A stretch of 64,000 nt of DNA from Paludibacteraceae bacterium (lineage in GTDB: Bacteria > Bacteroidota > Bacteroidia > Bacteroidales > Paludibacteraceae), in NCBI GenBank assembly GCA_905233255.1, contig CAJOCN010000004.1, positions 12,868 through 76,867 on the forward strand, written 5' to 3'. A program made the translations under genes and the position numbers. The stretch's first letter is position 1, and the number at the start of each line of letters is the position of its first letter. The notes beneath the pieces were generated by a model. That model ran no database searches. It was not told the DNA's origin and worked only from the letters and a program-made list of their open reading frames with translations. Positions 4,578-61,554 of the stretch are shown in pieces.

Positions 4578-6612
4578 AATAGACCGCTCACTGCGTTCGC
4601 TGAAAGAGCAAAGACCGCTCACTGCGTTCGCTGAAAGAATAAAGACTAAACGGATTCGACGATTCATTTTAGTCCTTTGTCTTATGTCTTTGAGTGCAGC
4701 GGTCTTTACTCCGGCATACGGACAGCTGAATACCGACCGCATCACCGCGATCGGTCGGAACGCGCTGTATTTCGAGGACTATGTGCTCTCCATACAGTAT
4801 TTCAACCAAGTCATCCACCTCAAACCGTATCTGCCCGAGCCGTATTTCTACCGCTCGATAGCAAAGATTCAGTTAGAGGACTATCAGGGAGCGCTCAATG
4901 ATTGCAATGCCGCCATCGAGCGCAATCCTTTCTCGCCGGGTTATTACTATGCGCGCGGTTATATCTACCGCCAGTTAGGAAGGGATGAGGATGCGGAGGC
5001 GGACTACACGCAGGCGTTGCGTTTTGCGCCGGAGAACCGCACCTATATGTTACTGCGCGCGGACACACGTGCGTCTCTGAAACGGTACGACGAGGCGCTG
5101 GAGGACATTGATCAGATGCTCAAACGCGAGCCGCAGTCGGCTTCCGTGTGGTCGGAAAAAGGGCGTGTATGTATCCTCAAGAAAGATACAATGAGTGCTC
5201 TGGAAGCCTTTGAACAGGCATCCAAATACGACAAGACAAATCCGGCAGTATGGTCGGCATTGGGCGTGACGAACCTGATGTTAGATCGCGAGGACGAAGC
5301 GTACGTACAACTGACACAAGCCATCAACTTAGGTTCCAAATGGGCAGGTGACTATATTAACCGCGGTATTATCCATTACCACCGGCATAATTTCCGCGGG
5401 GCGCTGGCGGACTATGACCAAGCCGTGAAGATCTCTCCGAGGGATGCCGATTGCTACTATAACCGCGGAGTGATGCGGCAGGAAGTAGGCGACTACAACC
5501 GGGCTCTGGAAGACTTTAATACCGCTATCTCGTTAGCTCCTGAACGCACGGAGATGCGGTACCAGCGAGGGCTCGTAGAGATGCAGCTCAAGCAGTGGAG
5601 CGCCGTAGTGAAAGACATGAACGTGCTGATAGCACAGTACCCGTATTTCCTGCCGGCATACTACATGGCGGCGCAGGCGAAGACGCACCAGGGCGACACC
5701 AAAGAGGCGTACCGTTACCGCAAAGAGGCGTACGATCTGGAGCAACGCAAGGATGAGATCCAGGCGCAGCAGGCATCACAGCCCAACACAGACATGCAGA
5801 TAGCTGACGCCCAGCCGCAGAAGAAAGATTACCGCAAGGAGTTCTCCACCTCCGCAGCGCAGAACCAACCGGAGATACCGGACGAGGAGCAGAAATACGA
5901 CTCGCAGACACGCGGAACGGTTCAGAAGAAATATCAGGACGTTGTGAACGAGCCTAATATCGTGTTGTCCTATTACACGCACGACCAGAGCCTCAAGAGC
6001 ACGAACTACTACCACCCCACCGTAGATGCCATCAACAAGAGCGAGATGTTGCCGGCAGCACTCAAGTTCACGAGCCAGGAGTTGACGCTGACCGCCGAGA
6101 TGGTGGACTACCATTTCAGCCAGATCAACCGCTTGACGACCCTCATGAACGAAGCGCCGACAGCACAACTGTATTTCGCGCGCGCCATGGAGTTCGCAAT
6201 CATCAAAGACTACGCGAGCGCGATAGACGATTGCACGAAAGCGATTGTCATTGCGGACAAGGAGCTGGAGGCAGTGCTCTGTTTCTGCCGCGCCAACTGG
6301 CGTTACCGAATGGAGGAAGTGGATTACGAACTGATGCACCGCGACTATGATCAGGTGCTCCGGCTACAACCGGATTTCTCCTTCGCGCTCTACAACAAAG
6401 CGAATATCCTCTGCGCTCAACGCGAGTATAAGGAGGCCATCAACTATTATACAAAGGCTATCGCAGTGGACCGCGATTTCGCAGAGGCGTATTTTAACAG
6501 AGGTCTGACCTATATCTATACCGGCGAGAATGAGAAAGGTCTGGCGGATTTGAGCAAAGCCGGTGAGTTAGGTATCTATCAGGCCTATAATTTGATTACA
6601 CGGTTCAAGTAA
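4561..6612 (+). CDS. Tetratricopeptide-repeat protein with an N-terminal signal/anchor segment
   Basis: Many TPR-like units (YYxRGxxYxxLGxxxxAxxDYxxAL pattern repeated). Hydrophobic segment FILVLCLMSLSAAVFTPAYGQ. The start is uncertain (ATG at 4534 or 4561), and the N-terminal about 40 aa are read through a 31-nt tandem repeat. Confidence 0.75.
   Translation: MKDVIKIDRSLRSLKEQRPLTAFAERIKTKRIRRFILVLCLMSLSAAVFTPAYGQLNTDRITAIGRNALYFEDYVLSIQYFNQVIHLKPYLPEPYFYRSIAKIQLEDYQGALNDCNAAIERNPFSPGYYYARGYIYRQLGRDEDAEADYTQALRFAPENRTYMLLRADTRASLKRYDEALEDIDQMLKREPQSASVWSEKGRVCILKKDTMSALEAFEQASKYDKTNPAVWSALGVTNLMLDREDEAYVQLTQAINLGSKWAGDYINRGIIHYHRHNFRGALADYDQAVKISPRDADCYYNRGVMRQEVGDYNRALEDFNTAISLAPERTEMRYQRGLVEMQLKQWSAVVKDMNVLIAQYPYFLPAYYMAAQAKTHQGDTKEAYRYRKEAYDLEQRKDEIQAQQASQPNTDMQIADAQPQKKDYRKEFSTSAAQNQPEIPDEEQKYDSQTRGTVQKKYQDVVNEPNIVLSYYTHDQSLKSTNYYHPTVDAINKSEMLPAALKFTSQELTLTAEMVDYHFSQINRLTTLMNEAPTAQLYFARAMEFAIIKDYASAIDDCTKAIVIADKELEAVLCFCRANWRYRMEEVDYELMHRDYDQVLRLQPDFSFALYNKANILCAQREYKEAINYYTKAIAVDRDFAEAYFNRGLTYIYTGENEKGLADLSKAGELGIYQAYNLITRFK
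4581..4638. repeat. 31-nt tandem duplication (AGACCGCTCACTGCGTTCGCTGAAAGA x2)
   Basis: Identical 27-nt cores at 4581-4607 and 4612-4638. Starts 4 nt after the PBP stop. Confidence 0.95.
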
Positions 6613-6613
6613 A

Positions 6614-6646
6614 GTGAAAAATGAAAAATGAAAAATGAAAAGTGAA
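6614..6646. repeat. Heptamer array GAAAAAT x4
   Basis: gtgaaaaatgaaaaatgaaaaatgaaaagtgaa read directly. Contains three staggered ATGs, and the third (6635) opens the downstream gene. Confidence 0.9.
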
Positions 6647-7531
6647 CGGATCATAGTAATACTCCTGTTCTTAGTTTGCACGACGATGAGTATTCGGGCG
6701 GAGTTGCTGTACGAGATCTCGGGCAACGGGGCGAGGGGGAAGTCCTATCTGCTGGCTACCAACCGGTTTGTGGACATGACGTTTCTGGACACAATACCCA
6801 ATGTATTCAAGTGTTTCGGCCGGTGCAAAAGTGTGGTGACGGAGTTCGCGATGCAGGACTACGAAGCCCTCGCGGCCCTTCGTCAAGCCGCTATACTCCC
6901 CGACTCCGTCAAACTGACCAATTTCTATACGCCGGAGGAATATAAATACATTGACAACTCGCTGAAAATCAATCTGGGGATGGGGCTCGACCAGCTATGC
7001 CGGATGAAGCCGTCGTACCTGACGGAAATGTTCCGCACAGAGCTCATGAAACAGTGGATCGGCTACAGCGAGGAGCGGTCGATGGAATCATTCTTTGAGA
7101 ACGTAGCGGCACAACGCGACATGCCGGTAATCGGGCTCGACAACATAGGCGAGACGATGTATATGCTCTTTGACCGTGAGCCTTTCCACTGGCAGTGCCA
7201 GGAACTCCTGAAAGTGATTGAGTACCCGGAGAAAGAGGTACAGCAGGAGCGAACGCTCAAGACCATGTACCTGGACGGACGGCTATCCGACATAGCCTAC
7301 CAAGTAGAGGGGCCGGACAACACAACCTCTATCTCTTTCTCCGATTACAAGGTCTATACCCAGCGTAACCAACAATGGGTCAAACGGCTCAAACCGATCC
7401 TTACGAAAGGAGAGGCATTTATCACCCTCAATGCCATCTATTTAGGCGGCGAGAAGGGCCTGATCGAACAACTGCGGGCAGCCGGTTACCGCGTGCGCCC
7501 CTATAATAGGAAATTAAAAATTACAAATTAA
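6635..7531 (+). CDS. Secreted protein, divergent TraB/GumN-like family
   Basis: Signal peptide. The N-terminal LLYEISGNGARGKSYLLATNRF resembles the GumN/TraB opening motif, but the usual His is absent. The ATG lies inside a GAAAAAT heptamer array. Confidence 0.45.
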   Translation: MKSERIIVILLFLVCTTMSIRAELLYEISGNGARGKSYLLATNRFVDMTFLDTIPNVFKCFGRCKSVVTEFAMQDYEALAALRQAAILPDSVKLTNFYTPEEYKYIDNSLKINLGMGLDQLCRMKPSYLTEMFRTELMKQWIGYSEERSMESFFENVAAQRDMPVIGLDNIGETMYMLFDREPFHWQCQELLKVIEYPEKEVQQERTLKTMYLDGRLSDIAYQVEGPDNTTSISFSDYKVYTQRNQQWVKRLKPILTKGEAFITLNAIYLGGEKGLIEQLRAAGYRVRPYNRKLKITN

Positions 7532-10311: not shown

Positions 10312-11618
10312 AGATCGCTTTTACTACATTAGGATGCAAACTCAATTTTGCGGAGTCCAGTGCCTTGGGTAAGGCACTCTTGGAGCGTGGTCACACGCGT
10401 GCCAAGCAAGGCGAGGAGGCGGATATATGCGTCATCAACACCTGTTCCGTCACGGACGCTGCGGACCATAAGGACCGCCAGATGATCCATCGCATCCGCC
10501 GCAATAACCCGAAGGCCATTCTCATCGTCACGGGTTGCTACGCCCAGCTCAAGCCCGAAGAAATCGCGCATATAGAGGGTGTTGATTATGTCCTTGGTCA
10601 GAACGAGAAATTCAACCTCCCGGCTTTCATCGATAAACTGGAGGCTAATCAGCAATCAGCAATCAGCAATCAGCAATCAGTAATCCACCTCTCCCCAATC
10701 CGCGAGATAGACGATTTCTACGGGGCATACAGCAAGGACGACCGCACGCGGTGCTTCCTCAAGGTGCAGGACGGCTGTAACTATTTCTGCTCCTATTGCA
10801 CCATTCCTCTGGCGCGCGGCAAGAGCCGTAACCCGTCGATCGAATCACTGGTAGAGGAAGCCAAAGAGGCTATCTCCGGCGGCGCGAAGGAGCTTATCCT
10901 GAGCGGTGTGAATATCGGTGATTTCGGGCGGTCCACCAACGAACATTTCATCGACTTGCTCCGTGCGCTGGACAGTATTGAGGGGGATTTTAGGATCCGT
11001 ATATCCAGTTGCGAACCCAACCTGCTGAGCGACGAGATCATTGATTTCGTAGCTGCCAGCCGCCATTTTGCGCCGCATTTCCATATACCTCTCCAGAGCG
11101 GCAGTAACACCGTTCTCAAGATCATGGGACGGCGTTATACGCGCGAGTTGTTCGCCGAACGCGTGGCGCATATCAAGTCCGTCATGCCGCACGCTTTCAT
11201 CGGCGTGGATTGTATGGTGGGAGTTCGCGGCGAGACAGAAGAGTGCTGGGCGGAGTACGTTGATTTTATCAGTTCGTTGGACGTGAGCCAGTTGCATGTC
11301 TTCACCTATTCGGAGCGCGCGAACACGCGGATGTTAGATATGGATCTGATCGTTGTGCAGCAACGCGAGCGGGAGCGCCGCAGCAAACAGCTCCACGCCA
11401 TCTCGGCGGCGAAGACAGAGGCGTTCTACCGCGCCCATGAGGGCTACGAAGCGACCGTCTTATGGGAGGCAAAGAAAGCCGACGGACTCATGTACGGCTT
11501 CACGGAGAACTACATCAAAGTCTCCTGCCCGTACGATAAGGCTAAAGTGAACACGTTTGAGCGCATAATCGTGCCGCGTCCGGATTCGGCAGACATTCCA
11601 ACCGATACACCGGCGTAG
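10308..11618 (+). CDS. mtaB: tRNA methylthiotransferase MtaB (radical SAM MTTase)
   Basis: MKIAFTTLGCKLNFAES opening with the N-terminal Cys triad, and radical SAM CNYFCSYC. ATGA overlap with the upstream stop at 10308-10311. Contains an in-frame AATCAGC heptamer tract. Confidence 0.85.
   Translation: MKIAFTTLGCKLNFAESSALGKALLERGHTRAKQGEEADICVINTCSVTDAADHKDRQMIHRIRRNNPKAILIVTGCYAQLKPEEIAHIEGVDYVLGQNEKFNLPAFIDKLEANQQSAISNQQSVIHLSPIREIDDFYGAYSKDDRTRCFLKVQDGCNYFCSYCTIPLARGKSRNPSIESLVEEAKEAISGGAKELILSGVNIGDFGRSTNEHFIDLLRALDSIEGDFRIRISSCEPNLLSDEIIDFVAASRHFAPHFHIPLQSGSNTVLKIMGRRYTRELFAERVAHIKSVMPHAFIGVDCMVGVRGETEECWAEYVDFISSLDVSQLHVFTYSERANTRMLDMDLIVVQQRERERRSKQLHAISAAKTEAFYRAHEGYEATVLWEAKKADGLMYGFTENYIKVSCPYDKAKVNTFERIIVPRPDSADIPTDTPA
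10647..10685. repeat. Heptamer array AATCAGC x about 5.5 inside mtaB
   Basis: Read directly. Encodes NQQSAISNQQSVI. Confidence 0.95.
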
Positions 11619-15179: not shown

Positions 15180-18100
15180 GTACTTCTCTCAATTCGTTTT
15201 TACGGGCGAACCACAGATAGCCGTGCACAGGGCTGTAGCCCATGCGCCGCAGCGCCTCCATGTATTCGCGCACTTGGGTCAGGTAATGTTCGTCCCATCC
15301 GCCGAACTTATAATCCAGCACGACGGCTTCGTTCGTCTCGGGGTTGATCATCACGCGGTCGGGACGCAACTCACGGTGATCCATGTATATCGCCTCCTCC
15401 AGCCGCAGTTCCCAGGGTTTGGTAAACCAATCCCGCATCTTCGGACTGCCTTCCCACGCCGAGGAGATCAAGTCTCTCAGTTCCTCTCTTTTCTCTTTGG
15501 AACCGATTTCTCCGCGGGTCTCGAAATCGTCCAGCACTGCCTCCAACTCATCGGCTTTGCGGATATGCGCGAAGATTTCGTGGCAGAGCGTGCCTTCGTC
15601 CATCCGCGCCACGCGCCGGTACGCCTCGTCGCCGTAGTCCGTATATAGCGCACCTTCCTGCGATTGCACGAACCGCACGTGGTCACTGTTCGCCCACAGC
15701 TCCGCCTCTACGGCTTCATTTTCAATTTCTAATTTTTCATTTTTAATTTTTAATTCCCCTCTCTCATACCCTTCCTCGCCGGCGAAATCCAGCAGATACT
15801 TACCCACATGGTTGCACACGCCGCGTTTGCCGTCTTTCTTCACCGAATAAGAGGTGTTTACAAACAGGTTGTCCTCGGCTCTCGTCAGCGCCACGTAGAG
15901 CATATTCAGGTTGTCGATCCGCAGGTTCATCTGTTCCTCCGCGTACTCCGCCGCATAGTCCGAATCCGCCATCTCTGTTCCGTAGAGCACCGGCACATAA
16001 TCACCCCGCTCGTCAATCCGAGGGGACACCTCGCACCACACTTTGGGTTTATGCCGTCCGTCCTCTTTCTCCCAGTGGCAGAAAGGCACGAAGAGCGTCT
16101 GCGCCTGCAGTCCCTTGCTCGCATGAATGGTCATGATCTGAATCGCGTTGGTGGCAGTCACGGGAATCGGTTTGGCGTGCATCGTGTCGTCCCAATAAAC
16201 GAGAAAATCCTCAATCGAACTCCCGTACGTACCCACGTACTCGCGCGTGCGGTCCAATAAGGAGTTGAGATACGCCGTTTCGGTGCCTTTATACTGCCCT
16301 TTCTCGTCCGTCAGCAGTACGCGCATCAACTCACTCACCGCCTCATACAGCGGCGTCTTGGCGTTGATTGTTAATTGTAAATTGTGAATTGTAAATTGTG
16401 CATTGTTCACCATCCTCCCCGCCACTTCATCGCCGTGCACCAGGTATCGCAGCGCCGCGATGATGAGTTGCACGTCTGCCGAAGCGTCGAGTTGGAAACT
16501 GTCGGCCGACACCACAGCCGTCTTCGTCAGCAGCGGGAACTGCTCCTCGTCCAACCCGGCTTTCATGTCGGTAATGGCGACAGCCTCCGACCTAAACCGC
16601 ACCAAGACCATCATATCCTCCGGCCGCACACCTCTCTGCAGCAACGCCTCCATCTGCATAAACATATCCGCCGCCAGTTCATCGTCCTTCGCGTTCGGGA
16701 ACGCCTTGAACCGCACATAGCCGCCTTTGTTGTCCGCTTGGTAAAAACTGTCCAGCTTCTCCGGTTTGTATCCCTCGCCGTATATCCGTTCCGCCAATTT
16801 TCCTAATTCGTCATTCGTAATTCGTAATTCGTCATTCGTAATATAGTCAAACAACGCCAAATTGAACTTCACCACCTCTTCGCGGCTTCGGAAATTCCGC
16901 GTCAGCGAGGTGAACCGCTCATTGATGCTCCCTTTGCCTCTAACCTTTCTACTTTCGTCCTTTAATTCTTCCATAATGTGCCAATCGCCGTTGCGCCAGC
17001 GGTAGATGGACTGTTTGATGTCCCCCACGATCAGCAACGTATTACCTGCGCCGGCGAGCACGTCGCGCAGCAGCTGTTCTATTACGCTCCACTGAAGCCG
17101 GCTCGTGTCCTGAAACTCATCGATCAGCACGTGCTTGTAGCGAATACCTGCTTTCTCCAGAATAAAATCCGCATCTCCGGTCTTCAGCGCTTTGCTCAGC
17201 GTGCTTGCCGTACGGGCGAGCAGCGCACTGTTCGCTTCCGCCAAGTCGCGCAGGATAATAGCTTGCAGCGACGCCATCAGCTCCTGATCCCTGCTGAACT
17301 TGATCGTCAGGAAGAGTGTGTTGTATGTCTTTGCCAACTCCTCGGCTATCGCCGTTGCCTGCTCCAACCCTTTCGCCTCTAACCCTTCGCCTATAACCTT
17401 TCCCCCTTCGCCCTTTAGTCCGCGGAAACGGTCTTTGGCAGGCACTTTCTCCGGTTTCTCCACAGACCGCCTCAGCCGGTCGTACGCCGCTTTGGAATAG
17501 CGGTTATAACCTTCGTATTGTGCTTTGCATGTGTCCAGGATAGTCTTCAACTCCTCCACTCGCTCGTCGTTCTGCCACTGCCGCTCTACCTGCTCGCGGC
17601 GACGTTGTATCGCCTTGGCGTCAAAGAGGATCTTACCCTCCGCGTCTAACATCTGCACCGACTCGTTGTACAGCTCTTTGACCATCGCCACCAGACTGCC
17701 GCGCACATCCCACTGGCTCTCCTGATCCAACTTGAGTTGCATGTAGTCCTCTAATATCTCCTTGTCCGCCTCCGTCATCTCCGTGCTCAGCAACTCATCC
17801 ACAGCCTTCCTTATCACATGATCCACATCGAGCTCCGTACTCTGCCCTGCCCCGATGCGCAGCACACCCGCCAAACCCGACAGCAGACTCTGCAGAAACG
17901 AGTCTATCGTCTGTACCTGCACGTTGTCATAGTCTAACAGCATTTTTCGGAAACACTCGCCGGCGCGAGCTCGCAGCACACTCTCCGGCGCACCCGCGTC
18001 ACGAACCATGAACGAACGCGCGTACTCCATGAACTCGCTCTCGCCGCCTTCCGCTATTCCGTGAAGGCGACCGATGATACGCTCGCTCATCTCCGCCGTC

Positions 18101-18359: not shown

Positions 18360-18434
18360 GGATCGACGATTTTGTGCAGAATCGCAGATTATTTTGTATA
18401 AAATCGCAGATTTTTCTTGCAAGAATCGGAGATT
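18360..18434 (+). promoter_or_regulatory. Phased direct-repeat array (GATCGACGATT, AATCGCAGATT x2, AATCGGAGATT) abutting a promoter
   Basis: Motif starts at 18361, 18380, 18402 and 18424. The last three are exactly 22 nt apart. The array ends 5 nt before the -7 box TAccTTTG at 18440-18447. Confidence 0.5.
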
Positions 18435-18716: not shown

Positions 18717-18800
18717 CCAGGTCTGACCTCACCGACAGCGTAAAAAAGCGGTGAATAATTTTATATACAGAGTTTCGGGAACGAGGCTCTGTTTTTTTGT
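18717..18800 (+). repeat. Copy 1 of an 84/85-nt direct repeat (contains an AGGTCTGACCT palindrome, a TCACCG/CGGTGA stem and a terminator)
   Basis: Matches 19489-19573 with two substitutions and a one-T length difference (hand alignment). Confidence 0.9.
18768..18798 (+). terminator. Intrinsic terminator inside repeat copy 1
   Basis: CAGAGTTTCG-GGAA-CGAGGCTCTG (10-bp stem including two G-U pairs, GGAA loop) followed by T7. Confidence 0.7.
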
Positions 18801-19488: not shown

Positions 19489-19573
19489 CCAGGTCTGACC
19501 TCACCGACAGCGTAAAAAAGCGGTGAAAAATTTTATATAAAGAGTTTCGGGAACGAGGCTCTGTTTTTTTTGT
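19489..19573 (+). repeat. Copy 2 of the 84/85-nt direct repeat
   Basis: See 18717-18800. Starts 6 nt after the DUF2442 stop. Confidence 0.9.
19540..19571 (+). terminator. Intrinsic terminator inside repeat copy 2
   Basis: Same stem-loop as copy 1, followed by T8. Confidence 0.7.
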
Positions 19574-24809: not shown

Positions 24810-24944
24810 ACGTAATCGCAAAATCTATATGAATTTTGTGGTTATAATCGTAAAATCTTTATAAAACATTTTAATATTTTATGGTATGATCTACATCCTC
24901 CGCGGGGAGAAGGTTTACAATGCGCAAGGCCGTTAGTAAAGTGA

Positions 24945-28306: not shown

Positions 28307-28333
28307 TTCACAATTTATAATTTATAATTGAAA

Positions 28334-41231: not shown

Positions 41232-41266
41232 ATAACTAAATGGCAAATGACTAAATAGTAAATAAT
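41230..41266. repeat. Degenerate heptamer tract (AAATAAC TAAATGG CAAATGA CTAAATA GTAAATA) in an intergenic leader
   Basis: Read directly, between the phosphatase-family gene stop and the DUF4494 ATG. Confidence 0.6.
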
Positions 41267-46950: not shown

Positions 46951-47928
46951 TTAACTCAGATCATATCCGTAATGGCGAAGACGAGAGGTGTTGGAACGCC
47001 AGTCGCGGTCCACTTTGACGAACAGTTGTAAGAAGACCTGTTTCTGGAAGAAATCCTCAATCTCTTTGCGAGCCTGGGAGCCGACACGCTTTAGAGCGCT
47101 GCCGGCTTTTCCTATTATTATACCCTTCTGGCTCTCGCGCTCGCAGTAGATGACAGCAGAAATCTCGATGAGAGATTTCTTGGTGATTGGTGATTGGTGA
47201 TTGGTGATTGGCTGTTCATCGTGGTCTATAAAGGACTCCACCTCCACTTCGACCGAATAAGGAATCTCCTTATCGTAGTTCTGGAGGATCTTCTCGCGGA
47301 TAATCTCGTTGACGAAGAACCGCTCGGATTTATCGGTCAACTGGTCTTTGGGGAAGAACGGAGCCCCAACGGGCAGTGCCTCTTTGATGGCATCAAAGAG
47401 TTGCGCCACGCCGAAACGCTCCTGCGCGGAGATGGGGAAGATCTCCGCCTCCGGCAGTTGGGTATGCCAGAAAGCAACGAGGTTCTCCAATGTCTCCTGG
47501 GTCGTCAGGTCAATCTTATTGATGATGAGGAACACTTTCGTGCCCGCTTCCGCCATCCGCTTGACTTTCGTCAGGAAATCGGGATTACGGTCAATGGTAT
47601 CTTGTGGCTCCGTCACATAGAGCAGCACATCCGCGTCCACAAGGGCGGAACGGCTGAACTCCAGCATTTTCTCCTGCAGTCTGTAATTAGGCGAGAGCAC
47701 GCCCGGCGTATCGGAATAGACCATCTGGAAATCCTCTCCGTTGACGATTCCCATGATCCGGTGACGCGTCGTCTGGGCCTTGGAGGTAATGATTGAGAGT
47801 CGCTCACCCACCAGCGCGTTCATTAATGTAGATTTGCCGACATTGGGATTACCAACAATGTTCACAAACCCACTTCGGTGGGCCTGTGAACATTGTTTAT
47901 TTGTCATTTGTAATTGGTTATTTGCCAT
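46951..47928 (-). CDS. era: GTPase Era
   Basis: GNPNVGKST (G1), DTPG (G3), NKID (G4), C-terminal KH domain (IIGKAGSALKRVG). Two heptamer tracts lie in frame. Confidence 0.92.
   Translation of the reverse strand: MANNQLQMTNKQCSQAHRSGFVNIVGNPNVGKSTLMNALVGERLSIITSKAQTTRHRIMGIVNGEDFQMVYSDTPGVLSPNYRLQEKMLEFSRSALVDADVLLYVTEPQDTIDRNPDFLTKVKRMAEAGTKVFLIINKIDLTTQETLENLVAFWHTQLPEAEIFPISAQERFGVAQLFDAIKEALPVGAPFFPKDQLTDKSERFFVNEIIREKILQNYDKEIPYSVEVEVESFIDHDEQPITNHQSPITKKSLIEISAVIYCERESQKGIIIGKAGSALKRVGSQARKEIEDFFQKQVFLQLFVKVDRDWRSNTSRLRHYGYDLS
47182..47211. repeat. Heptamer array GGTGATT x4 inside era
   Basis: Read directly. Encodes ...QPITNHQSPITKK... on the minus strand, between the GTPase and KH domains. 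Confidence 0.9.
47890..47924. repeat. Degenerate heptamer tract (CATTGTT TATTTGT CATTTGT AATTGGT TATTTGC) at the era 5' end
   Basis: Read directly. Encodes the N-terminal extension MANNQLQMTNKQ. Confidence 0.7.
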
Positions 47929-50853: not shown

Positions 50854-50906
50854 TTAGTTTTGTTCTAGTTTATCTAGTTTAACTAGTTGTACTAGTTTTT
50901 CTAGTT
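50854..50906. repeat. CTAGTT-type 9-nt array (five CTAG at 9-nt spacing)
   Basis: CTAG starts at 50865, 50874, 50883, 50892 and 50901 (hand count). Lies between the tdh stop and the M16 peptidase start. Confidence 0.9.
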
Positions 50907-51932
50907 TTACCATTCAAGCAGTACTTTGCCGCACTGGCCGGAGACCATGACGTCGAAGCCCTTCTGGAAGTCCTCGAACTTGAAACGGTGTGTGATTACC
51001 GGGCTCAAGTCCAGACCGCCGAGGAGCATCTGCTCCATCTGGTACCAAGTCTCCCACATGCGGCGTCCCGTGATACCTTTGATGGTCAGGGCATTGAAGA
51101 TGACGTCGGACCAGTTGACCTGGGTGTCAGAAGGCAGGATACCGAGTTGGGCGATATTGGCACCTTTGTACATGTGCTCGATCATCTCGTTGAAGGCTGC
51201 GGGTGCGCCGGACATCTCCAGTCCCACATCGAATCCCTTGATACCGAGTTGCTGCATGGCGCCTTGTACGGTCTCTCCTTTGGAGCCATCGACCGTCAGC
51301 GTGGCACCCATCTTCTTAGCGATCTCCAGCCGAAGCGGATTAATATCCGTCACGACTATATTCTTCGCGCCTGCGTAGCGGCATATACCAGCCGCCATCG
51401 TTCCGATGAGTCCTGCACCAGTGATCAGCACGTCTTCGCCTAAGAGCGGGAAAGCCAATGCCGTGTGCGTAGCGTTACCAAAGGGATCCATGATTGCTGC
51501 GAAATCGTCTGGTATCTCAGGGCGGAGTTTGACTACGTTGCTTTCCGGGATGGTTACATATTCGGCGAAACAACCATCCTTGCCCATTATTCCGACGGAG
51601 ATGGTGTTCTCGCAGACGTGCCCCATTCCCCGGCGACAGTTACGGCAGTGTCCGCAGACGATGTGCCCTTCGGCGGTCACACGTTCACCGACCTTGAAGT
51701 TACGCACACCTGCGCCCACTTCGGCTACTACTCCCACGAACTCGTGGCCCATCGTATAAGGCGGTTTGCAGTGACTCTGCGACCAAGCGTCCCATTTGTA
51801 CATGTGCAGGTCGGTTCCGCAGATGGCGGCTTTGATGACCTTAATCAGCACGTCGTTGACTCCCACTTCCGGCATCGGCACTTCTTCCATCCAGATGCCG
51901 GGCTCTGCATATTTCTTTACTAAAGCTTTCAT
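50907..51932 (-). CDS. tdh: L-threonine 3-dehydrogenase
   Basis: MKALVKKYAEPGIWMEEVPMPE opening, zinc-ADH motifs (GHEFVG, CGHCRNCRRG), GAGLIG Rossmann motif. The listed ORF's extra 33 N-terminal codons read through the repeat array and are rejected. Confidence 0.9.
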   Translation of the reverse strand: MKALVKKYAEPGIWMEEVPMPEVGVNDVLIKVIKAAICGTDLHMYKWDAWSQSHCKPPYTMGHEFVGVVAEVGAGVRNFKVGERVTAEGHIVCGHCRNCRRGMGHVCENTISVGIMGKDGCFAEYVTIPESNVVKLRPEIPDDFAAIMDPFGNATHTALAFPLLGEDVLITGAGLIGTMAAGICRYAGAKNIVVTDINPLRLEIAKKMGATLTVDGSKGETVQGAMQQLGIKGFDVGLEMSGAPAAFNEMIEHMYKGANIAQLGILPSDTQVNWSDVIFNALTIKGITGRRMWETWYQMEQMLLGGLDLSPVITHRFKFEDFQKGFDVMVSGQCGKVLLEW

Positions 51933-51933
51933 T

Positions 51934-51983
51934 TTTTCTAGTTTATCTAGTTTAACTAGTTCTTCTAGTTTGACTAGTTCTTT
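51934..51983. repeat. CTAGTT-type 9-nt array (five CTAG at 9-nt spacing)
   Basis: CTAG starts at 51938, 51947, 51956, 51965 and 51974. It fills the kbl-tdh intercistronic gap, and the kbl stop codon (TAG) is part of the last unit. Confidence 0.9.
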
Positions 51984-53183: not shown

Positions 53184-53215
53184 TTCTAGTTGACTAGACG
53201 ACTAGACGACTAGTT
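53184..53215. repeat. CTAG(TT/AC)GA 8-nt array (four CTAG at 8-nt spacing)
   Basis: CTAG starts at 53186, 53194, 53202 and 53210. Lies in the kbl 5' leader. Confidence 0.85.
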
Positions 53216-53258
53216 AAATTATTCCCTGTTCCATGATAAATCACCTTGAACAGCTGCA

Positions 53259-54602
53259 TCAGATGATGCCCTGTTCGAGCATCGCGGTTGCGACCTTCAT
53301 AAAGCCGGCGATGTTGGCGCCTTTGACATAGTCGATTGTGCCGTCGGGCTGAGTGCCGTAGCGGACACATTGCTCGTGGATGGACTCCATGATATGATGC
53401 AGACGCTCATCGACTTCTTTTCCTGTCCAGGACAGGTGCTCGGCGTTCTGGGTCATTTCGAGGCCCGAGGTTGCCACGCCTCCGGCGTTAACCGCCTTAC
53501 CCGGAGCAAAGAGCACGCCGTTGTGCTGGAAGAAATGGATCGCTCCCGGCTGGCAGCCCATGTTCGACACCTCGCAGCAGCACCAGCAGCCGTTTGCCTT
53601 CAGTTCCTTGGCGTCGTCTTCGCTCAGTTCGTTCTGGAACGCGCAGGGCAGTGCAATGTCGCACGGGATAGACCATGCTTTCTTGCCGGCGGTAAAGACA
53701 CAGGCTTGCGGGAACTTGTCCGCCATGTCCTGCACTTTGTTGCGGTTGGACGCACGCATAACGAGCATGTAGTCGATCATGTCTTTGGTGATACCATCCT
53801 TGATGGCTACAACGCCGTCCGGTCCGGAGATAGCGACTACCTTTGCGCCCAACTCAACTGCCTTAGTGGCAGCTCCCCATGCCACATTACCGAAGCCGGA
53901 GATGGCTACTTTCTTGCCCTTGATATCTTTGCCCGCTTTGTGCAGGAGGTGTTGCGTAAAATAGAGTGCGCCGAAGCCGGTTGCCTCCGGACGGAGAATC
54001 GAGCCGCCCCAAGTCATGCCTTTGCCGGTGAGGACACCTGTGTGATACTCACGTGCCAGTTTCTGGTACATGCCGTTGAGGAATCCGATCTCTCGACCGC
54101 CGACGCCCACATCACCGGCAGGAATATCCTGGTCCGGACCGATGCAACGCCAGAGTTCGAGCATGAAGGCCTGGCAGAAACGCATGATCTCCGCGTCTGA
54201 TTTGCCAACCGGATCAAAGTCCGAACCACCCTTTGCGCCGCCCATCGGCAGTGTCGTCAGCGCATTCTTGAAGGTCTGCTCGAAGCCCAAGAACTTGAGC
54301 ATAGACGGGGTAACGGCTCTGTGGAAGCGGAGACCGCCTTTGTACGGGCCAATCGCGGAGTTGAACTGCACGCGGTAACCGAGGTTGGTCTGTACCTCAC
54401 CCTCGTCGTCGATCCACGTCACGCGGAAAGTGAAAATACGGTCGGGCTCTACCATTCGCTCAACAATCTTCGCTTTCTCAAACTCAGGGTGTTGGTTGTA
54501 CACCTCTTCAATCGACTCCAACACTTCTTGCACGGCTTGCAGGTACTCTGCCTCGCCCGGATGTTTCGCAGCTAACTGCTGCATAATGTCTTGTACTTTC
54601 AT
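53259..54602 (-). CDS. gdhA: NAD(P)-specific glutamate dehydrogenase
   Basis: GPYKGGLRFH, LPMGGAKGGSDFDP and GFGNVAW are hallmark GDH motifs. 447 aa. Confidence 0.95.
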   Translation of the reverse strand: MKVQDIMQQLAAKHPGEAEYLQAVQEVLESIEEVYNQHPEFEKAKIVERMVEPDRIFTFRVTWIDDEGEVQTNLGYRVQFNSAIGPYKGGLRFHRAVTPSMLKFLGFEQTFKNALTTLPMGGAKGGSDFDPVGKSDAEIMRFCQAFMLELWRCIGPDQDIPAGDVGVGGREIGFLNGMYQKLAREYHTGVLTGKGMTWGGSILRPEATGFGALYFTQHLLHKAGKDIKGKKVAISGFGNVAWGAATKAVELGAKVVAISGPDGVVAIKDGITKDMIDYMLVMRASNRNKVQDMADKFPQACVFTAGKKAWSIPCDIALPCAFQNELSEDDAKELKANGCWCCCEVSNMGCQPGAIHFFQHNGVLFAPGKAVNAGGVATSGLEMTQNAEHLSWTGKEVDERLHHIMESIHEQCVRYGTQPDGTIDYVKGANIAGFMKVATAMLEQGII

Positions 54603-54752
54603 TGTTTTTGTGTTTTAAATGGTATTTTGTATATTAATTTGTATATGTTTATTAGTGTCTAATAAAATCGGCTACAAAGTTACACAAAAAAATTGAATTA
54701 CGCAAGCGCGCGCGTACTTTTTTATAAAAAATACGTTTTTTGAGGAACGGAA

Positions 54753-55018: not shown

Positions 55019-57571
55019 TTATTTTCCTCCCACTCCACCTCCTCCGCCGAGACGGGAGGATTCGTCCATGTCGCCCACTTTGCGGTATTTGGTGCGTTGC
55101 TGCTGGCCGAACATCCATGTGACGGAGAGCATGACACGCTGCTGGCGGACGGTGTTCTTATACCACGAATGATAGCCCGGTTGCTGGCCCAAATCATCGG
55201 TTTGGAAACTAAGCGAACGGAGCAGGTCCTGGACGTTGAGATTGAAGATCAAGCCTTTCTGCATCCACATCTTGCGCACGCCGAAGGAGGCAAAATAGGT
55301 ACTCCCGGAGCGGTTATAACCCGTGGTCATAGGCGAGGACCAGTTTCCATCGAGTGTGAGCGTCCAATCCTTGGGCAGATAGGCGGAGAGTGTGCCTCCC
55401 ACATAGCCGTAATGGTTCCTATTCTCATACACCGGCTTCCCATCCGCCTTTTTCTCGTACGACTTGTTGATGAAATGCATCCATCCGGCATTGACCGTTA
55501 GTGCCAGCCATGCGCCAACGATTTGACGATTTGAAGATTTGAGGATTTGAGAATTTGAAGATTGATTATTCTCATCGTTAGAAAATTTCGGCACAAGGGG
55601 AAGTTCAGTGAGCGAGATATTCATGCCGTGGGTGGTACAGGTACCGAAATTCGACCATTGGGAGAGACCTATTCCGTTCGGCAAAATCGTCACTTTGGAG
55701 GAGAACATGTCCTGCGTGTGCGCGAAATTGAAAGTCATGTTGAGGTATTGTGTCCATGAGAAATGCAGCTCCACATCGTTGTTGAACTCCGGCGTGAGGT
55801 TTGTGTTTCCTTTCTGAATCGAATAGGCATCCACATAAGATGTGAAGGGATTGAGCATCCAATAGGACGGACGTTTGATACGCCGCGTATAAGTCGCGGA
55901 GACGGTTATCGGCTGTTGGAGTTTGCCAAGCGGTATGGTCGTATAGCCGATATAGGCGGTCGGGAAGGGGTCAAAATAGGTCTTGTTGATGACCGAATCC
56001 AATCCTCCGTCCCTCCAGTCGCCGTGGGAGAAGGTATATTCGCCGCGAAGTCCAATTTTGACCGACCAGTGCTCTCCGAACTGCTTGCCGACGGATATAT
56101 ATGCCGCCGCGACGTGTTCGTCATAGCGGAAGGCATCGTAATCCGTAGGACGCACTACTCCATTGCGTGTCGAATCGGTCGTCATGTTATTGTCGGTCGA
56201 AGATAGCGCATACTTGACGCCGGCTTCAATCATACCGGTTTTCCAGAACTTGGTCTGGAAGTCCATCTTCGCAGAATAGATATTGACGATTTGCTTGCTT
56301 TTGATGTCAATACCCAGCGCGCTAATACCGTTGAAAGGCTTGTCGTAAGTCGTCTCTTGGAAATTCGAGGAACCGTTGTTGTAGCGGTTGTAGTCGATAT
56401 TGACGGTCAGTTCGCGCTCCAAGTCCTCCGAAAAAGTGTGGGTATAGTTGAGGTTCGCCGTGTGCTGCGGAGCTTTGAGAAGGTTTTGCGAATTGGTCGT
56501 ACTATTCGTCGTATCCGCGCCTTGAATCATATAGGCGTAGTTGAGTCCCGGCACGATGTGCTGATCGACGTTCATGAAGGGCACTTGGAGAATGAAACCA
56601 AGCGTGTTGAGCGAGTCGATATACCAATCGTTACCGAGTTTGAGCATGTAGTACTGGAAAGCGATGTCGTAGTCCGAATAGGAGTAGTTCTTCAATGCCG
56701 GCGTCTCGCGAGAGGACTCAAAATCGATGTCATTCTGCGCAAAGACCTGCGTAAACTGACCGAAAGTATAGGTTTTCTCGCCGCGATAATTGAGGTTGAG
56801 CGAGACCATTTCGTTGTTCAACCAACGTTTGACATCACCGAAATACATGCCGCCGTACGCAGCAGAGAGCATTCCGTTGAGTCCGCGCATCATGTTGCGC
56901 TTGGTCTTGATATTGATGATTCCACCCTGCCCCGAGGCGTCGTATTTGGCGGAGGGGTTGGAGATAATCTCGATTTTCTCAATCGTGTTTCCGTCCGTAC
57001 CGTCGAGCATCGCTTTGAGTTGCTGGCCGGAGAGGTACGAGGGTTTGCCGTCCACGTAGATTTCCACGGATTTGCCGTTGACGGTAATGTTGCCGTCCTT
57101 GTCGATGCGCACACCCGGCGAGCGGCGGAGTATATCGTTGCCGTTGGAACCGGCTGCAAGAGGCGAAGCGGAGACATTGACCACCAGTTTGTCCATCTGG
57201 CGCTCAATAAGCGGTTTCTTCGCCTTCACCTCCACTTCCGCGAGGCGTTCGGTCTCTTCGCGTAGGACGAAATCCGGTCCACCGAATGCCGTCTGATAGC
57301 CGATATAGGAGGCCTGGAGGATGAGATTTGACATTTGAGATTTGACATTCGAGATTTCAATCTCGTATTTGCCTTTTTCATCCGTGATGGCACCGGTGAG
57401 GAGGGTCGAATCCTGCGCGAGGACGGAGATAGTCACAAACGGCATGGCCTCGCCTCGGGAATTAATGACGGAACCTTTGATGGTCTGAGCCGAACAGTGA
57501 GCAGAAAGAGCTGAAAGGGCAAATACCAACACTACCCATAACGCTAATTTTATCGCATCTTTTGTCTTCAT
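55019..57571 (-). CDS. TonB-dependent-receptor-like outer membrane beta-barrel protein with an N-terminal carboxypeptidase-regulatory-like domain
   Basis: Signal peptide, IKGSVINSRGEAMPFVTISV (CarboxypepD_reg-like), plug-like region, long beta-barrel. ATG at 57571 chosen. Two in-frame repeat tracts. Confidence 0.8.
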   Translation of the reverse strand: MKTKDAIKLALWVVLVFALSALSAHCSAQTIKGSVINSRGEAMPFVTISVLAQDSTLLTGAITDEKGKYEIEISNVKSQMSNLILQASYIGYQTAFGGPDFVLREETERLAEVEVKAKKPLIERQMDKLVVNVSASPLAAGSNGNDILRRSPGVRIDKDGNITVNGKSVEIYVDGKPSYLSGQQLKAMLDGTDGNTIEKIEIISNPSAKYDASGQGGIINIKTKRNMMRGLNGMLSAAYGGMYFGDVKRWLNNEMVSLNLNYRGEKTYTFGQFTQVFAQNDIDFESSRETPALKNYSYSDYDIAFQYYMLKLGNDWYIDSLNTLGFILQVPFMNVDQHIVPGLNYAYMIQGADTTNSTTNSQNLLKAPQHTANLNYTHTFSEDLERELTVNIDYNRYNNGSSNFQETTYDKPFNGISALGIDIKSKQIVNIYSAKMDFQTKFWKTGMIEAGVKYALSSTDNNMTTDSTRNGVVRPTDYDAFRYDEHVAAAYISVGKQFGEHWSVKIGLRGEYTFSHGDWRDGGLDSVINKTYFDPFPTAYIGYTTIPLGKLQQPITVSATYTRRIKRPSYWMLNPFTSYVDAYSIQKGNTNLTPEFNNDVELHFSWTQYLNMTFNFAHTQDMFSSKVTILPNGIGLSQWSNFGTCTTHGMNISLTELPLVPKFSNDENNQSSNSQILKSSNRQIVGAWLALTVNAGWMHFINKSYEKKADGKPVYENRNHYGYVGGTLSAYLPKDWTLTLDGNWSSPMTTGYNRSGSTYFASFGVRKMWMQKGLIFNLNVQDLLRSLSFQTDDLGQQPGYHSWYKNTVRQQRVMLSVTWMFGQQQRTKYRKVGDMDESSRLGGGGGVGGK
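55519..55568. repeat. Octamer array GATTTGA(N) x about 6 inside the receptor gene
   Basis: Read directly. Encodes NQSSNSQILKSSNRQIV on the minus strand. Confidence 0.85.
57322..57364. repeat. Heptamer array (GATTTGA CATTTGA GATTTGA CATTCGA GATTTCA) inside the receptor gene
   Basis: Read directly. Encodes EISNVKSQMSNLI on the minus strand, within the N-terminal domain. Confidence 0.85.
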
Positions 57572-60062: not shown

Positions 60063-60794
60063 ATGATACAACTTTTCACGGCATTGCTATTGGGATTGCT
60101 GACTATTTTAGACCCTTGCACACTGATGACGAGCATCACCGCCATCAGTTATATCGACAAGGAAATCAATAACAAACGAATGGTTCTGACGAACGGTCTT
60201 ATGTTCGTTCTGGGCAAACTGGCGACGTATATTCTGCTCAGTATTCCATTCCTTGCCGGCGCGCAGACAGAAGGAATCCAGCACGTGCTTTCGCATTGGG
60301 GCGAACCGATTCTGGCGGGTTTCATGCTCATCTGCGGCTTGGTGCTCCTTTTCAGCGGTCATCACCACCACGAGCACGACCACGGCATCAGCAAATGGCT
60401 CAAAGACACGGACAGCAAAGAGAGTTGGCTCTGGTCGTTCATACTCGGTATTTTCTTTGCAATCGCTTTCTGTCCTCACCGTCTGGTCTATTTCCTGACG
60501 ATGATCGATATCACCCTCACGCTACCAGGTTCCTGGAACTGGCTCATGCCCGTTGTTTTCGGCCTCGGAACGGGTCTGCCTATCATGCTGATTGCGTGGC
60601 TGGTAAGCTACAGCGCGGTGAGTATCGGCAAGCTGACCAGCAAGATGCAGAGTTTCGAGAAATGGTTTAGGCACATCTGCGCAGTACTGTTTATCGTCTT
60701 GGGATGCTATCTGGCAGTTCATTGCGTCATTGAGTACCACGAACACGAGCACAATGGTAGTTGCCACCATTGTGAATTGAGATTTGATATTTGA
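60063..60794 (+). CDS. DsbD_2/CcdA-like polytopic membrane protein with His-rich loops (putative metal or thiol-redox transporter)
   Basis: LLGLLTILDPCTLMT opening typical of DsbD_2-like proteins. GHHHHEHDHG loop and C-terminal EYHEHEHNGSCHHCE. Confidence 0.5.
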   Translation: MIQLFTALLLGLLTILDPCTLMTSITAISYIDKEINNKRMVLTNGLMFVLGKLATYILLSIPFLAGAQTEGIQHVLSHWGEPILAGFMLICGLVLLFSGHHHHEHDHGISKWLKDTDSKESWLWSFILGIFFAIAFCPHRLVYFLTMIDITLTLPGSWNWLMPVVFGLGTGLPIMLIAWLVSYSAVSIGKLTSKMQSFEKWFRHICAVLFIVLGCYLAVHCVIEYHEHEHNGSCHHCELRFDI

Positions 60795-60807
60795 GATTTG
60801 AGATTGG
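60774..60807. repeat. Heptamer array (AATTGAG ATTTGAT ATTTGAG ATTTGAG ATTGG)
   Basis: Spans the last codons and stop of the upstream gene, and ends at the ATG of trmN6 (60808). Confidence 0.85.
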
Positions 60808-61554
60808 ATGGCTTCGGAGGGTTTTCAGTTCAAGCAGTTCTTTGTGGCACATGACCGCTGTGCGATGAAAGTCGGCACGGACGGCGTGTTGTTAGGCGCG
60901 TGGGCTCCGATAGATTTCAATATTTCTTCATTTACAAATTTTCGCATTCTCGATGCCGGAACGGGCAGCGGGTTGATTGCTATGATGCTTGCGCAGCGAT
61001 TCCAACAGGCGCAGATAGATGCCATAGATATCGATGAAGCAGCAGTGGACCAAGCCGCAGACAATTTCCGCTCTTCCCCTTGGTCAGAACGATTACATGC
61101 CTATTGCGCCAAATTGCAGGAATGGCAGGGGTGCTACAACCTCGTTGTATCTAACCCGCCCTATTTCCAAAACAGCCTCAAGAACCCCGACAAAGCGCGT
61201 GAGTTAGCGCGGCACACCGACACACTCAGTTACACGGAGCTGCTCCGTCACAGCGCACAGTTGTTGCGTGAGGAAGGGCGGCTGAGCCTTATTCTGCCCG
61301 CCGAGACGGAAGAGGAAGTATGCACTCTGGCGGCAAAAGAGGGATTTGTCCTCACGCGCGTCACGCGCGTTTATAGTAAGGAGTCCAAACCGGCGCGGAG
61401 GATTTTATTAGCCTTCGAGAAATCGACATCTCGACATGACGGCATAACGACATCTCGACATCTCGTCCCCATCGAAGACACACTCGTTTTAGAGGATGAC
61501 AAAAGCGGGCGTTCCGCCGCCTACCGGGAAATAACAAAGGACTTCTACCTATAG
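60808..61554 (+). CDS. trmN6: tRNA1(Val) (adenine37-N6)-methyltransferase (YfiC/TrmN6)
   Basis: FQFKQFFVAHDRCAMKVGTDGVLLGAW opening, DAGTGSGLIA SAM motif, SNPPYF catalytic motif. Has an in-frame octamer tract near the C-terminus. Confidence 0.85.
   Translation: MASEGFQFKQFFVAHDRCAMKVGTDGVLLGAWAPIDFNISSFTNFRILDAGTGSGLIAMMLAQRFQQAQIDAIDIDEAAVDQAADNFRSSPWSERLHAYCAKLQEWQGCYNLVVSNPPYFQNSLKNPDKARELARHTDTLSYTELLRHSAQLLREEGRLSLILPAETEEEVCTLAAKEGFVLTRVTRVYSKESKPARRILLAFEKSTSRHDGITTSRHLVPIEDTLVLEDDKSGRSAAYREITKDFYL
61424..61463. repeat. Octamer array (CGACATCT CGACATGA CGGCATAA CGACATCT CGACATCT) inside trmN6
   Basis: Read directly. Encodes STSRHDGITTSRHLV. Confidence 0.8.

Follow-up and report, generated by a model that had tools for sequence, protein, structure and literature searches.

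A 64,000-nt stretch of an uncultured Paludibacteraceae (Bacteroidales) bacterium from the herbivore gut (assembly GCA_905233255.1, contig CAJOCN010000004.1, positions 12,868 to 76,867; here called the window, with positions counted from its first letter) carries a dense population of short tandem arrays. Most have AT-rich units of 7 nt, and they lie at gene boundaries or in frame inside conserved genes. Such arrays occur in most of a large group of related genomes. In our judgement they are probably best explained by lineage-wide slipped-strand tandem duplication combined with a selection filter, with a separate subset, built on CTAG cores, retained as hairpins.

Short tandem arrays exceed chance and gather at gene boundaries

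Tandem Repeats Finder (TRF) was run on the window and rows with a score of at least 30 were merged, which gave 47 arrays from 63 rows. A score of at least 50 was reached by 26 arrays, and 18 had a period of 6-9 nt with at least four copies. For the same three counts, dinucleotide shuffles (n = 50, 2-kb blocks) gave means of 8.5, 0.2 and 0.02 and maxima of 14, 2 and 1, and 50 kb of Escherichia coli K-12 gave 8, 1 and 1. An earlier note, made from the letters of the window, had listed more than 25 arrays, roughly one per 2-3 kb. The 26 higher-scoring arrays, far above chance, bear this out, and all units and coordinates of that list were found. The arrays also are, as described there, AT-rich patches in G+C-richer DNA (mostly 5-45% GC; window ~52%). 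A few listed arrays are of other classes: positions 4581-4646 lie within an inverted-repeat element resembling a miniature inverted-repeat transposable element (MITE), and 29693-29768 carry a related motif of normal GC content. The repeats at 2172, 62864 and 63576 are ordinary GC-rich coding repeats, again another class.

Nine of 27 selected arrays have a start or stop codon within 10 nt, compared with 2.3 ± 1.5 (maximum 8) in 5000 trials of random placement, which confirms the reported clustering at gene boundaries. Thirteen others are intragenic and in frame, and five are otherwise intergenic. Arrays make up 13.1% of non-coding and 1.16% of coding bases. The in-frame arrays do lie in conserved genes, namely those for Era, a MiaB-like protein, ApbE, a UvrD-like helicase and an outer-membrane barrel. 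A scan of the window with Rfam (gathering threshold) and for tRNAs gave no matches, and between 47.8 and 55.1 kb a terminator and sigma-70 promoter scan found none above shuffles and none at arrays.

The arrays are identical in independent assemblies

Exact-protein look-ups found the region in the ENA assemblies ERZ28574337, ERZ1667813, ERZ27234812, ERZ28573687 and ERZ1667847 and in Logan ERR3525309/10 and DRR855018. No record was returned for the helicase or for the TTG-start form of the 28328 open reading frame (ORF). In contigs from 5-8 independent assemblies (at least five samples/assemblers) the arrays were base-for-base identical and of the same lengths. The earlier note had taken absence from independent assemblies as a sign of an artefact; the arrays are present there at full length. 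That they are products of assembly, scaffolding or engineering is therefore next to inconceivable. It is true that short contigs repeatedly start or stop within arrays, so that the arrays break short-read assemblies, and one assembly, ERZ1667813, shows odd deletions of 8-22 nt. These deletions, however, fall outside the arrays. The arrays preserve reading frames and occupy loops, and analogous ones are found in metagenome-assembled genomes (MAGs) of many independent studies. The recurrence of the same arrays in independent assemblies and in related MAGs indicates neither artefact nor engineering.

The ERZ1667813 deletions (contigs L001, L087 and L094) are located at 10500, 12494, 27855, 29660 and 45993, in non-repetitive coding sequence with no mismatches elsewhere, and some break the reading frame (ApbE, ClpB-like). 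Errors of assembly or polishing probably account for them, but they may also be real microdeletion variants.

Arrays are spread through the lineage with a slippage-like spectrum

A search with the Era protein gave 80 syntenic loci from Paludibacteraceae/Bacteroidales MAGs of ruminant, horse and human guts, with 65-88% identity; the best DNA identity was ~84%. TRF found arrays in most of the 80 loci, at a density of 0.7-2.8 per 10 kb depending on the Era-identity bin. Arrays of at least 3.5 copies numbered 286 in 1.36 Mb. Because most of the related MAGs have arrays, the active generating process suggested in the earlier note is supported, and it is lineage-wide. Periods of 7 nt dominate (151 arrays), followed by 8 nt (55), 11 nt (31), 9 nt (28), 6 nt (16) and 10 nt (5), while units of up to 4 nt account for ~11. 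The mean unit GC content is 35%. Copy number has a median of ~4.5 and decays with a roughly geometric tail, and higher-order periodicities of 14, 16 and 21 nt result from alternating variant units. The earlier note had set its generating process against random slippage; this part is not supported, since the period spectrum, the geometric copy tail, the higher-order periodicities and the local seeds described below are what slippage predicts.

A characteristic array length, as from block insertion, was considered and rejected, since across periods it is the copy number that stays constant and not the length, and the tail falls off. A test of all arrays for a conserved core plus variable spacer was negative (499 invariant positions, 540 simulated), the per-array tests being underpowered. 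Not every relative has arrays. At 89% Era identity, L017 (RUG14487) and L019 (RUG10750) show compact junctions and are free of such arrays over ~20 kb, and L046 and L047 likewise have array-free junctions of 4-12 nt.

Arrays usually start from local sequence, are stable in strains and turn over between species

The first copy of an array is usually local gene-end sequence. AATTATG, a leader plus ATG, is the commonest heptamer unit (10 arrays). The Era array is built on ATGACAA, at the start of the gene, and the start arrays of Era and L020 contain ATG. At the kbl-tdh junction the kbl stop (AAC-TAG) supplies the array with its first TAG, and the 9-nt arrays are in frame with the upstream stop. 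Next to these cases, 45 nt of the 3' coding end of gdh are repeated in tandem right after its stop in the window (~53214-53258, minus strand) and in L006, L012, L018, L019 and L022; L022 has three copies.

On the strain time-scale the arrays are stable. In 42.8 kb of comparisons at 98-100% identity (227 single-nucleotide polymorphisms, SNPs) there were no array indels, and 898 array nucleotides held 2 SNPs against 4.8 expected. A scan of JGI metagenomes for length variants of the 28221 array gave no matches. Between species the arrays turn over by expansion, contraction and homogenisation, and the same junctions hold arrays with different units. Thus the gdh-kbl unit is CTAGTCGT in the window, TCGAAATA in L006, CGTGATTA in L012, CTCGTGAT in L014 and TTGACAA in L044, while a few species have a compact junction such as TGATAAGTTATG. 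Judging from peptide alignments, insertion-length gaps between species would fit steps of three units (24 nt in the outer-membrane protein, OMP; 21 nt in Era).

These data bear on the suggestion of the earlier note that the arrays are contingency loci, in which gain or loss of units switches genes or varies proteins in the population. Phase-variable simple sequence repeats (SSRs) of this kind are known from Haemophilus and Neisseria. Like them, the window arrays are short tandem repeats in or near genes, and their architecture, with repeats at promoters, 5' ends and coding regions, is similar; breaks of contigs of several assemblies within arrays could also reflect heterogeneity. However, array lengths are the same in all independent assemblies, including those of strains 98.0-98.5% identical, with neither a copy-number change nor an excess of SNPs. 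The units are longer and the copies fewer (mostly 4-6) than in phase-variable SSRs. Arrays of 7-8-nt units lie in housekeeping genes (Era, MiaB-like, helicase), where a change of one unit is a frameshift, and in ApbE and operon junctions rather than in dispensable surface genes. We regard contingency loci as very improbable.

Slipped-strand mispairing in replication or repair would instead create the arrays and remodel them over longer times. Mismatch repair by E. coli MutS is limited to loops of ~4 nt; looped-out array units would exceed this size and so escape MutS-type repair, and AT-richness would ease unpairing of the nascent end. Occasional ectopic template switching or gene conversion may spread array sequence between loci.

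Arrays persist in spacers, loops, linkers and termini

Arrays persist where they are harmless: in intercistronic spacers and untranslated regions, and as frame-preserving insertions in loops, linkers and termini. Compared with orthologues or solved homologues, the intragenic arrays are insertions at such sites, and the peptides that they encode are hydrophilic and of low complexity. In Era, the KH-domain loop insertion (47180 array) is without counterpart in the closest relatives, and most relatives lack the N-terminal extension (47899 array). The OMP has two arrays, both in length-variable loops; from the peptide, the array of L014 appears to be shorter, with ~2 units. The repeat in ApbE forms a loop insertion of ~10 residues compared with 6nxi. 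The UvrD-like helicase has four arrays, none within the blocks alignable to solved helicases (residues 20-78, 374-472 and 640-810), an alignment so divergent that it places them only approximately.

Era (46951-47928) also shows a mosaic distribution of its arrays. The N-terminal array is common to the window and L006, and the KH-loop allele with its flanks (FIDHDEQ...LIEISAV) to the window and the more distant L028. From the compared sequences of L006, L007 and L028, this pattern suggests recombination between species within the gene.

At several junctions the spacer is filled wholly by the array (6611-6646, 28221-28329 up to 5 nt before the ATG, 41228-41265 and 60770-60809). Spacers are short, and an array therefore abuts both the stop and the next start. 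As RNA the 7-nt arrays are unstructured (ΔG and z both ~0), they hold fewer 6-nt palindromes than expected (12; expected 18.9), and on the sense strand A exceeds T (A 0.38, T 0.28). Bacteroidota are not known to rely on Shine-Dalgarno pairing. Most arrays might be functional cis-elements, either unstructured A/U-rich landing pads or arrays of sites for an RNA- or DNA-binding protein governing translation initiation or coupling between cistrons. Their lack of structure, their A-rich sense strand, their enrichment at stop/start junctions and the occupation of the same junctions by arrays in most species agree with this, and a similar role has been proposed for TAACTGA arrays (MacGregor 2015, PMC4679880). 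On the other hand, the sense composition of junction arrays is that of junction sequence generally and holds no extra signal. The units at one junction differ by species, and the dozens of unrelated units in the window cannot all be sites of one factor. Half of the arrays are intragenic, and L017, L019, L046 and L047 have array-free junctions. We therefore consider a cis-acting role of most arrays improbable, and the general protein- or RNA-binding function proposed in the earlier note is not supported, given the change of units between species and the array-free junctions of L017 and L019. Arrays are dispensable in these two sister species. With local seeding, harmless placement, stability in strains and turnover between species, most arrays need no function of their own.

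Some array sequences recur at other loci

Identical segments of arrays were found at separate loci. The two arrays flanking tdh have 26 identical nucleotides in common, and a helicase array has 23 in common with an array in an unrelated protein, both in sense orientation. A 22-nt motif, AAGGCGAAGGGTTAGAGGCGAA, occurs three times (none expected), at 17372-17393 (minus strand), 27410-27431 (plus) and 34615-34636 (plus), always in the sense of the local gene. Units are more alike within genomes (18.3%) than between genomes (7.1%), and identical units between loci amount to 1.07% against 0.28% expected, a repertoire narrower than chance. A heptamer family related to the 22-nt motif, RAGGYKA, recurs in L042, L051, L054 and L064.

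A dedicated copying system that deposits arrays, by template-directed addition, as a very small mobile element or by ectopic templated repair, would account for these recurrences. It would also fit the association of arrays with MITE-like elements, the inverted array pairs described below and the existence of array-poor sister genomes. Against it, many units visibly derive from the local start or stop context, dozens of them are unrelated, and the copy-number distribution lacks a characteristic block size. There are no conserved termini and no target duplications, and no reverse transcriptase or transposase gene lies within the window. We consider a dedicated system unlikely.

Several of these observations nevertheless weigh against slipped-strand duplication with selection as a full account. 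The identical segments of 23-26 nt at unlinked loci call for a further way of copying, units come from a restricted repertoire, and heptamers of the RAGGYKA family turn up in distant relatives as well. Slippage leaves unexplained why this lineage is array-prone beside array-poor close relatives. No slippage event was directly observed, and arrays of up to 11.7 copies are without length polymorphism in 5-8 assemblies, although minor variants are collapsed on assembly and contigs frequently break where arrays lie. The core-plus-spacer test over all arrays was negative, and the functional inference made below applies to the palindromic-core subset only, where action at the RNA and at the DNA level is indistinguishable.

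Arrays with a CTAG core form a separate, structured subset

The earlier note had treated all arrays as one phenomenon. The arrays are real, but two kinds were merged, and those with CTAG cores and units of 8 or 9 nt behave differently. CTAG is by far the rarest tetranucleotide of the window, with 17 occurrences against 93 expected from a Markov model. Fourteen of these lie within the three arrays at 50864, 51933 and 53186, and three outside. Over all loci, 114 of 503 CTAGs fall in periodic clusters, at a spacing of 8 nt (n = 39) or 9 nt (n = 48), with single cases of 7 and 10 nt (n = 1 each). In the nearest clade the observed/expected ratio outside arrays is 0.07, and 95 CTAGs are in arrays compared with 65 outside. 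The ratio is 0.3-0.55 in the L042-L064 clade; strong depletion is a property of the window and L006-L045.

In TRF-ascertained CTAG arrays, an a-priori pooled test gave mismatches at 3 of 292 core positions against 69 of 337 spacer positions (p = 6e-17), so that the core is ~20-fold better conserved than the spacer. The arrays begin 1-12 nt past a stop codon. Those of the window form nested ladder hairpins when folded (-9.7 to -10.5 kcal/mol, z -3.8 to -4.1), array hairpins of relatives reach -28.6 and -47.1 kcal/mol, and z for the subset overall is -3 to -5.6. Palindromic 6-nt cores (CCTAGG, CTATAG, TCTAGA, GATATC) are enriched in 9-nt units (10 of 27 against 4.6 expected, P = 0.002) and less so in 8-nt units, and other palindromic cores (CCTAGG, CTATAG, TCGA, GATATC) seem to be in use in related clades. 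Significant structure (z < -2) was found at the gdh-kbl junction in 13 of 19 species, at kbl-tdh in 11 of 21 and at tdh-M16 in 7 of 28. At gdh-kbl it is formed by palindromic-core arrays in some species and by ordinary inverted repeats in others. The folding predictions point to selection on a hairpin at the gdh-kbl-tdh junctions, palindromic-core arrays being one means of forming it.

Because the cores are conserved and the junction structure is conserved across species, we infer that the CTAG subset is kept by selection as putative hairpin punctuation after stops in the gdh-kbl-tdh-M16-era operon. Going further, the CTAG arrays could be an undescribed operon punctuation element consisting of CTAG followed by N4-5, repeated 4-11 times at a strict period of 8 or 9 nt, which would act as ladder hairpins in the mRNA or as tandem docking sites for a CTAG factor; as mRNA hairpins they might affect the processing or stability of the message or uncouple the gdh, kbl, tdh and era cistrons. 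We put this forward tentatively, with more doubt than confidence. A putative CTAG-recognising factor could be linked to BfaI-type restriction-modification pressure, which we presume, as a guess, to be behind the CTAG purge.

Repetitive extragenic palindromic (REP) elements, bacterial interspersed mosaic elements (BIMEs) and intercistronic stem-loops are extragenic strong hairpins that stand after stops, between genes that are co-directional or convergent. The CTAG subset, and only this subset of the arrays, resembles them in its extragenic position close behind stops, between genes of these orientations, and in its hairpins. It differs in having tandem palindromic cores with free spacers, not one long inverted repeat, and lacks the GTAG/CGTC head of REP classes (PMC3733652). 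The window holds three CTAG arrays in 64 kb, and no RAYT transposase was seen in it. By analogy, the function of the subset would be that of intercistronic stem-loops or REP elements that adjust the expression of cistrons relative to one another, although the subset is not a member of the family.

A third route to structured junction elements is seen in inverted pairs of heptamer arrays around a short centre, which occur in L027 (15713-15806), in L078 (502-580) and at the kbl-tdh junctions of L008, L013, L030 and L034. The resulting hairpins are long, with up to -40 kcal/mol (z -4 to -5). Viral contigs gave 45 matches to CTAG-N4 arrays, mostly perfect repeats and many on giant-virus contigs; the contigs inspected closely are CTAG-rich and unrelated, and this candidate was rejected.

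Comparison with other heptamer repeats

Heterocystous cyanobacteria reportedly carry short tandemly repeated repetitive (STRR) sequences with the units CCCCAGT (STRR1), TTGGTCA (STRR2) and CAACAGT (STRR3), said to have been described by Mazel and colleagues in 1990. The analogy drawn in the earlier note is apt, as in both cases heptamer arrays are scattered genome-wide, intergenic and occasionally in genes. Unlike the few many-copy STRR families, however, the window holds dozens of unrelated few-copy units, and it belongs to another phylum: its closest relatives are Paludibacteraceae/Bacteroidales MAGs, not heterocystous cyanobacteria. No TRF consensus of the window is a rotation of these three units. 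TTGGTGA of the window is one base from STRR2, probably by coincidence. The 22-nt motif and the RAGGYKA family resemble small dispersed repeats of cyanobacteria.

The view in the earlier note that nothing comparable is described in Bacteroidota was too strong. Heptamer arrays with the unit TAACTGA are described from Beggiatoaceae, cyanobacteria and five Bacteroidetes, including Paludibacter propionicigenes (MacGregor 2015, PMC4679880). They too lie directly upstream of starts or after stops, with some in ORFs, and contigs end in them. That system has one dominant unit, unlike the many unrelated units here. TAACTGA repeats are absent from the window, where a single match with two mismatches is at chance level. 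The GGGNATC heptamers of Xanthomonas and Nostoc are G-rich, quadruplex-forming and of one consensus (Rehm et al. 2015, PMC4692102). They share with the window arrays a preferred place between ORFs of the same direction, no more than 50 bp from a stop or start, typically about four units and a structure-forming subset; the window arrays, however, are AT-rich and their structured subset consists of palindrome-based hairpins.

The broadest frame is the survey of long simple sequence repeats (LSSRs) with units of 5-11 nt by Mrazek, Guo and Shah (2007), as summarised in PMC4679880. According to that summary, heptamers are commonest, polymerase slippage was proposed as the origin, genomes rich in this class are poor in units of 1-4 nt, and the phylogenetic distribution is sporadic; the ten richest genomes belong to Burkholderia, cyanobacteria, actinobacteria and Xanthomonas, and multiples of three are favoured in coding regions. 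By the features summarised there, the arrays here agree with this class in being above chance (26 in the window against 0.2 in shuffles), heptamer-dominated, sporadic in distribution and accompanied by few arrays of 1-4-nt units. They differ from it, as far as the summary goes, in the new lineage (Paludibacteraceae), in the AT-rich units of a genome of ~52% GC and in that most in-frame arrays have units of 7 or 8 nt, not multiples of three. The lineage is a newly recognised heptamer-rich LSSR lineage, with the CTAG ladder arrays as a possibly new element type embedded in it.

With these genomes, a large group of Bacteroidales from rumen and gut, as yet uncultured, joins the few bacterial lineages that accumulate heptamer-class tandem repeats. 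With dozens of syntenic species, both array-rich and array-poor, the comparative material is unusually clear, and the question why some bacteria make 7-nt repeats at a high rate becomes testable by comparing replication and repair genes of sister genomes. The arrays offer a route to fast evolution of operon spacers, protein termini and surface loops, as in the Era N-terminus and the OMP loop insertions. They also break short-read assemblies and shift start-codon calls, which affects MAG annotation in Paludibacteraceae. Should the CTAG arrays be functional, they would provide a small natural module with which expression inside operons of Bacteroidales could be adjusted. They also raise the question why a forbidden tetranucleotide is kept only there.

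Features of the window

The arrays and the repeats of other classes are collected in Table 1.

Table 1. Tandem arrays and other repeats of the window (aa, amino acids; dG in kcal/mol; units of the earlier note in brackets).
Position	Strand	Unit and copies	Location	Remarks
6611-6646	+	AAAATGA/GAAAAAT x5.1	TAA stop of TPR gene (6610-6612) through ATG (6635) of TraB/GumN-like gene	RNA fold dG 0, z +0.3; identical in L001-L004
7511-7531	+	AAATTAA x3	Covers stop of TraB-like gene (7529-7531); next start 7542	Contig L005 starts exactly here
10647-10685	+	AATCAGC x5.6	In frame, MiaB-like methylthiotransferase, aa 114-126, NQQSAISNQQSVI	Linker between UPF0004 and radical-SAM domains; contigs L004, L005 end within
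15715-15755	-	7-nt array, sense AATTAAA/AATGAAA	UvrD-like helicase, aa 841-854, ELKIKNEKLEIENE	
16367-16406	-	ATTGTRA x5.7 (ATTGTAA)	UvrD-like helicase, aa 624-637	
16800-16842	-	TTCGTAA x6.1 (TAATTCG)	UvrD-like helicase, aa 479-493, ITNDELRITNDELGK	
17362-17402	-	14-nt unit x2.9	UvrD-like helicase, aa 292-305, GKVIGEGLEAKGLE	23 identical nt in common with 27411-27433
24938-24994	+	AAAGTAC-type 7/22-nt array	Long spacer upstream of MarR-like gene, in low-GC island	
25322-25403	+	TGAAAGA x11.7 (GAAAGAT)	Intergenic	Longest heptamer array; unstructured, dG 0; same in L086
27384-27462	+	AAAGGCG / GGTTAGAGGCGAA / AGAGGCGAA arrays	Near N-terminus of 323-aa hypothetical protein, aa 45-71	
28221-28329	+	ATTTGAAG x10.8, then AATTTAT x2.6	Entire spacer from TAA stop (28219-28221) to ATG 28334	Same length in L086, L087, L088, L090, L091; contigs L092, L093, L089 begin in or just past array
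41228-41265	+	CTAAATAA-type array	Stop codon (41229-41231) to start codon 41267	
47180-47211	-	TTGGTGA x4.6, 100% match (GGTGATT)	In frame, Era, aa 240-250, PITNHQSPITK	
47899-47928	-	Sense ATGGCAA ATAACCA ATTACAA ATGACAA	Heptamer array on Era start codon	N-terminal extension MANNQLQMTNKQC
50864-50907	-	CTAG-core 9-nt array, 5 cores, CTAGTTTNN	Between tdh-like stop and M16 peptidase start	TAGs in frame with upstream stop; fold dG -10.3, z -4.0
51933-51982	-	CTAG-core 9-nt array, 5 cores, CTAGTTTNN	First TAG is kbl-like stop; ends 6 nt before tdh-like ATG	Fold dG -10.5, z -3.8; 26 identical nt in common with 50863-50888
53186-53213	-	CTAG-core 8-nt array, 4 cores, CTAGACGA at 53192	Between gdh and kbl	Fold dG -9.7, z -4.1
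54601-54644	-	AT-rich 19-nt / heptamer-like array	Immediately upstream of gdh start codon	
54881-54917	-	AACTAATCACT x3.4 (11 nt)	416-nt spacer between OMP gene and gdh	Structured, z -3.4
55520-55563	-	GATTTGAA x5.5 (GATTTGA)	In frame, outer-membrane beta-barrel, aa 694-708, QSSNSQILKSSNRQI	Length-variable loop; contig L101 ends within
57322-57357	-	TGAGATT/TGACATT x5.1 (GATTTGA)	In frame, same OMP as 55520 array, aa 96-108	Variable turn of CarboxypepD_reg domain
60770-60809	+	TTGAGAT x4-5 (GATTTGA at 60777)	DsbD_2 gene C-terminus and stop (60792-60794) to methyltransferase ATG (60808)	
61423-61465	+	TCGACATC x5.4 (CGACATCT)	In frame near methyltransferase C-terminus, aa 206-220	
4581-4711		MITE-like element, 31-nt x2 direct repeat	Just past PBP gene stop	Other class; inverted termini GAGCAAAGACCGCT / AGCGGTCTTTACTC
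29693-29768	+	GC-normal 16-17-nt repeat, AGCGGTCT motif	In frame in ApbE loop	Other class; related to MITE termini
34615-34636	+	Single dispersed copy of AAGGCGAAAGGTTAGAGGTGAA	Directly after YajC stop	Third copy of 17372 / 27410 motif

Elements of the MITE-like type (AGACCGCT...AGCGGTCT) are also found at other junctions of relatives, in L028 (kbl-tdh), L030 and L034 (~18.4-18.8 kb). The called TTG at 4534 probably lies upstream of the true start of the TPR gene that ends at the 6611 array.

Apart from the arrays, the window contains a direct repeat of ~82 nt (18717-18798 and 19489-19570, 772 nt apart, with exact blocks of 39 and 30 nt). Its place is the left end of an island of low GC content (18.3-27 kb, GC 35-42%) that encodes a WYL/WCX regulator, a DEDDh exonuclease and SprT-like and MarR-like proteins. 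This island may have been acquired or may serve defence, with the repeats being att-like. Repeats of 20-22 nt are present in promoter regions at 18369-18434, where they are structured (z -3.1), and at 33204-33255, with Bacteroidetes-type -7 motifs (TAnnTTTG, e.g. TACCTTTGCA). They probably represent duplicated promoter or operator sequence and not the heptamer phenomenon.

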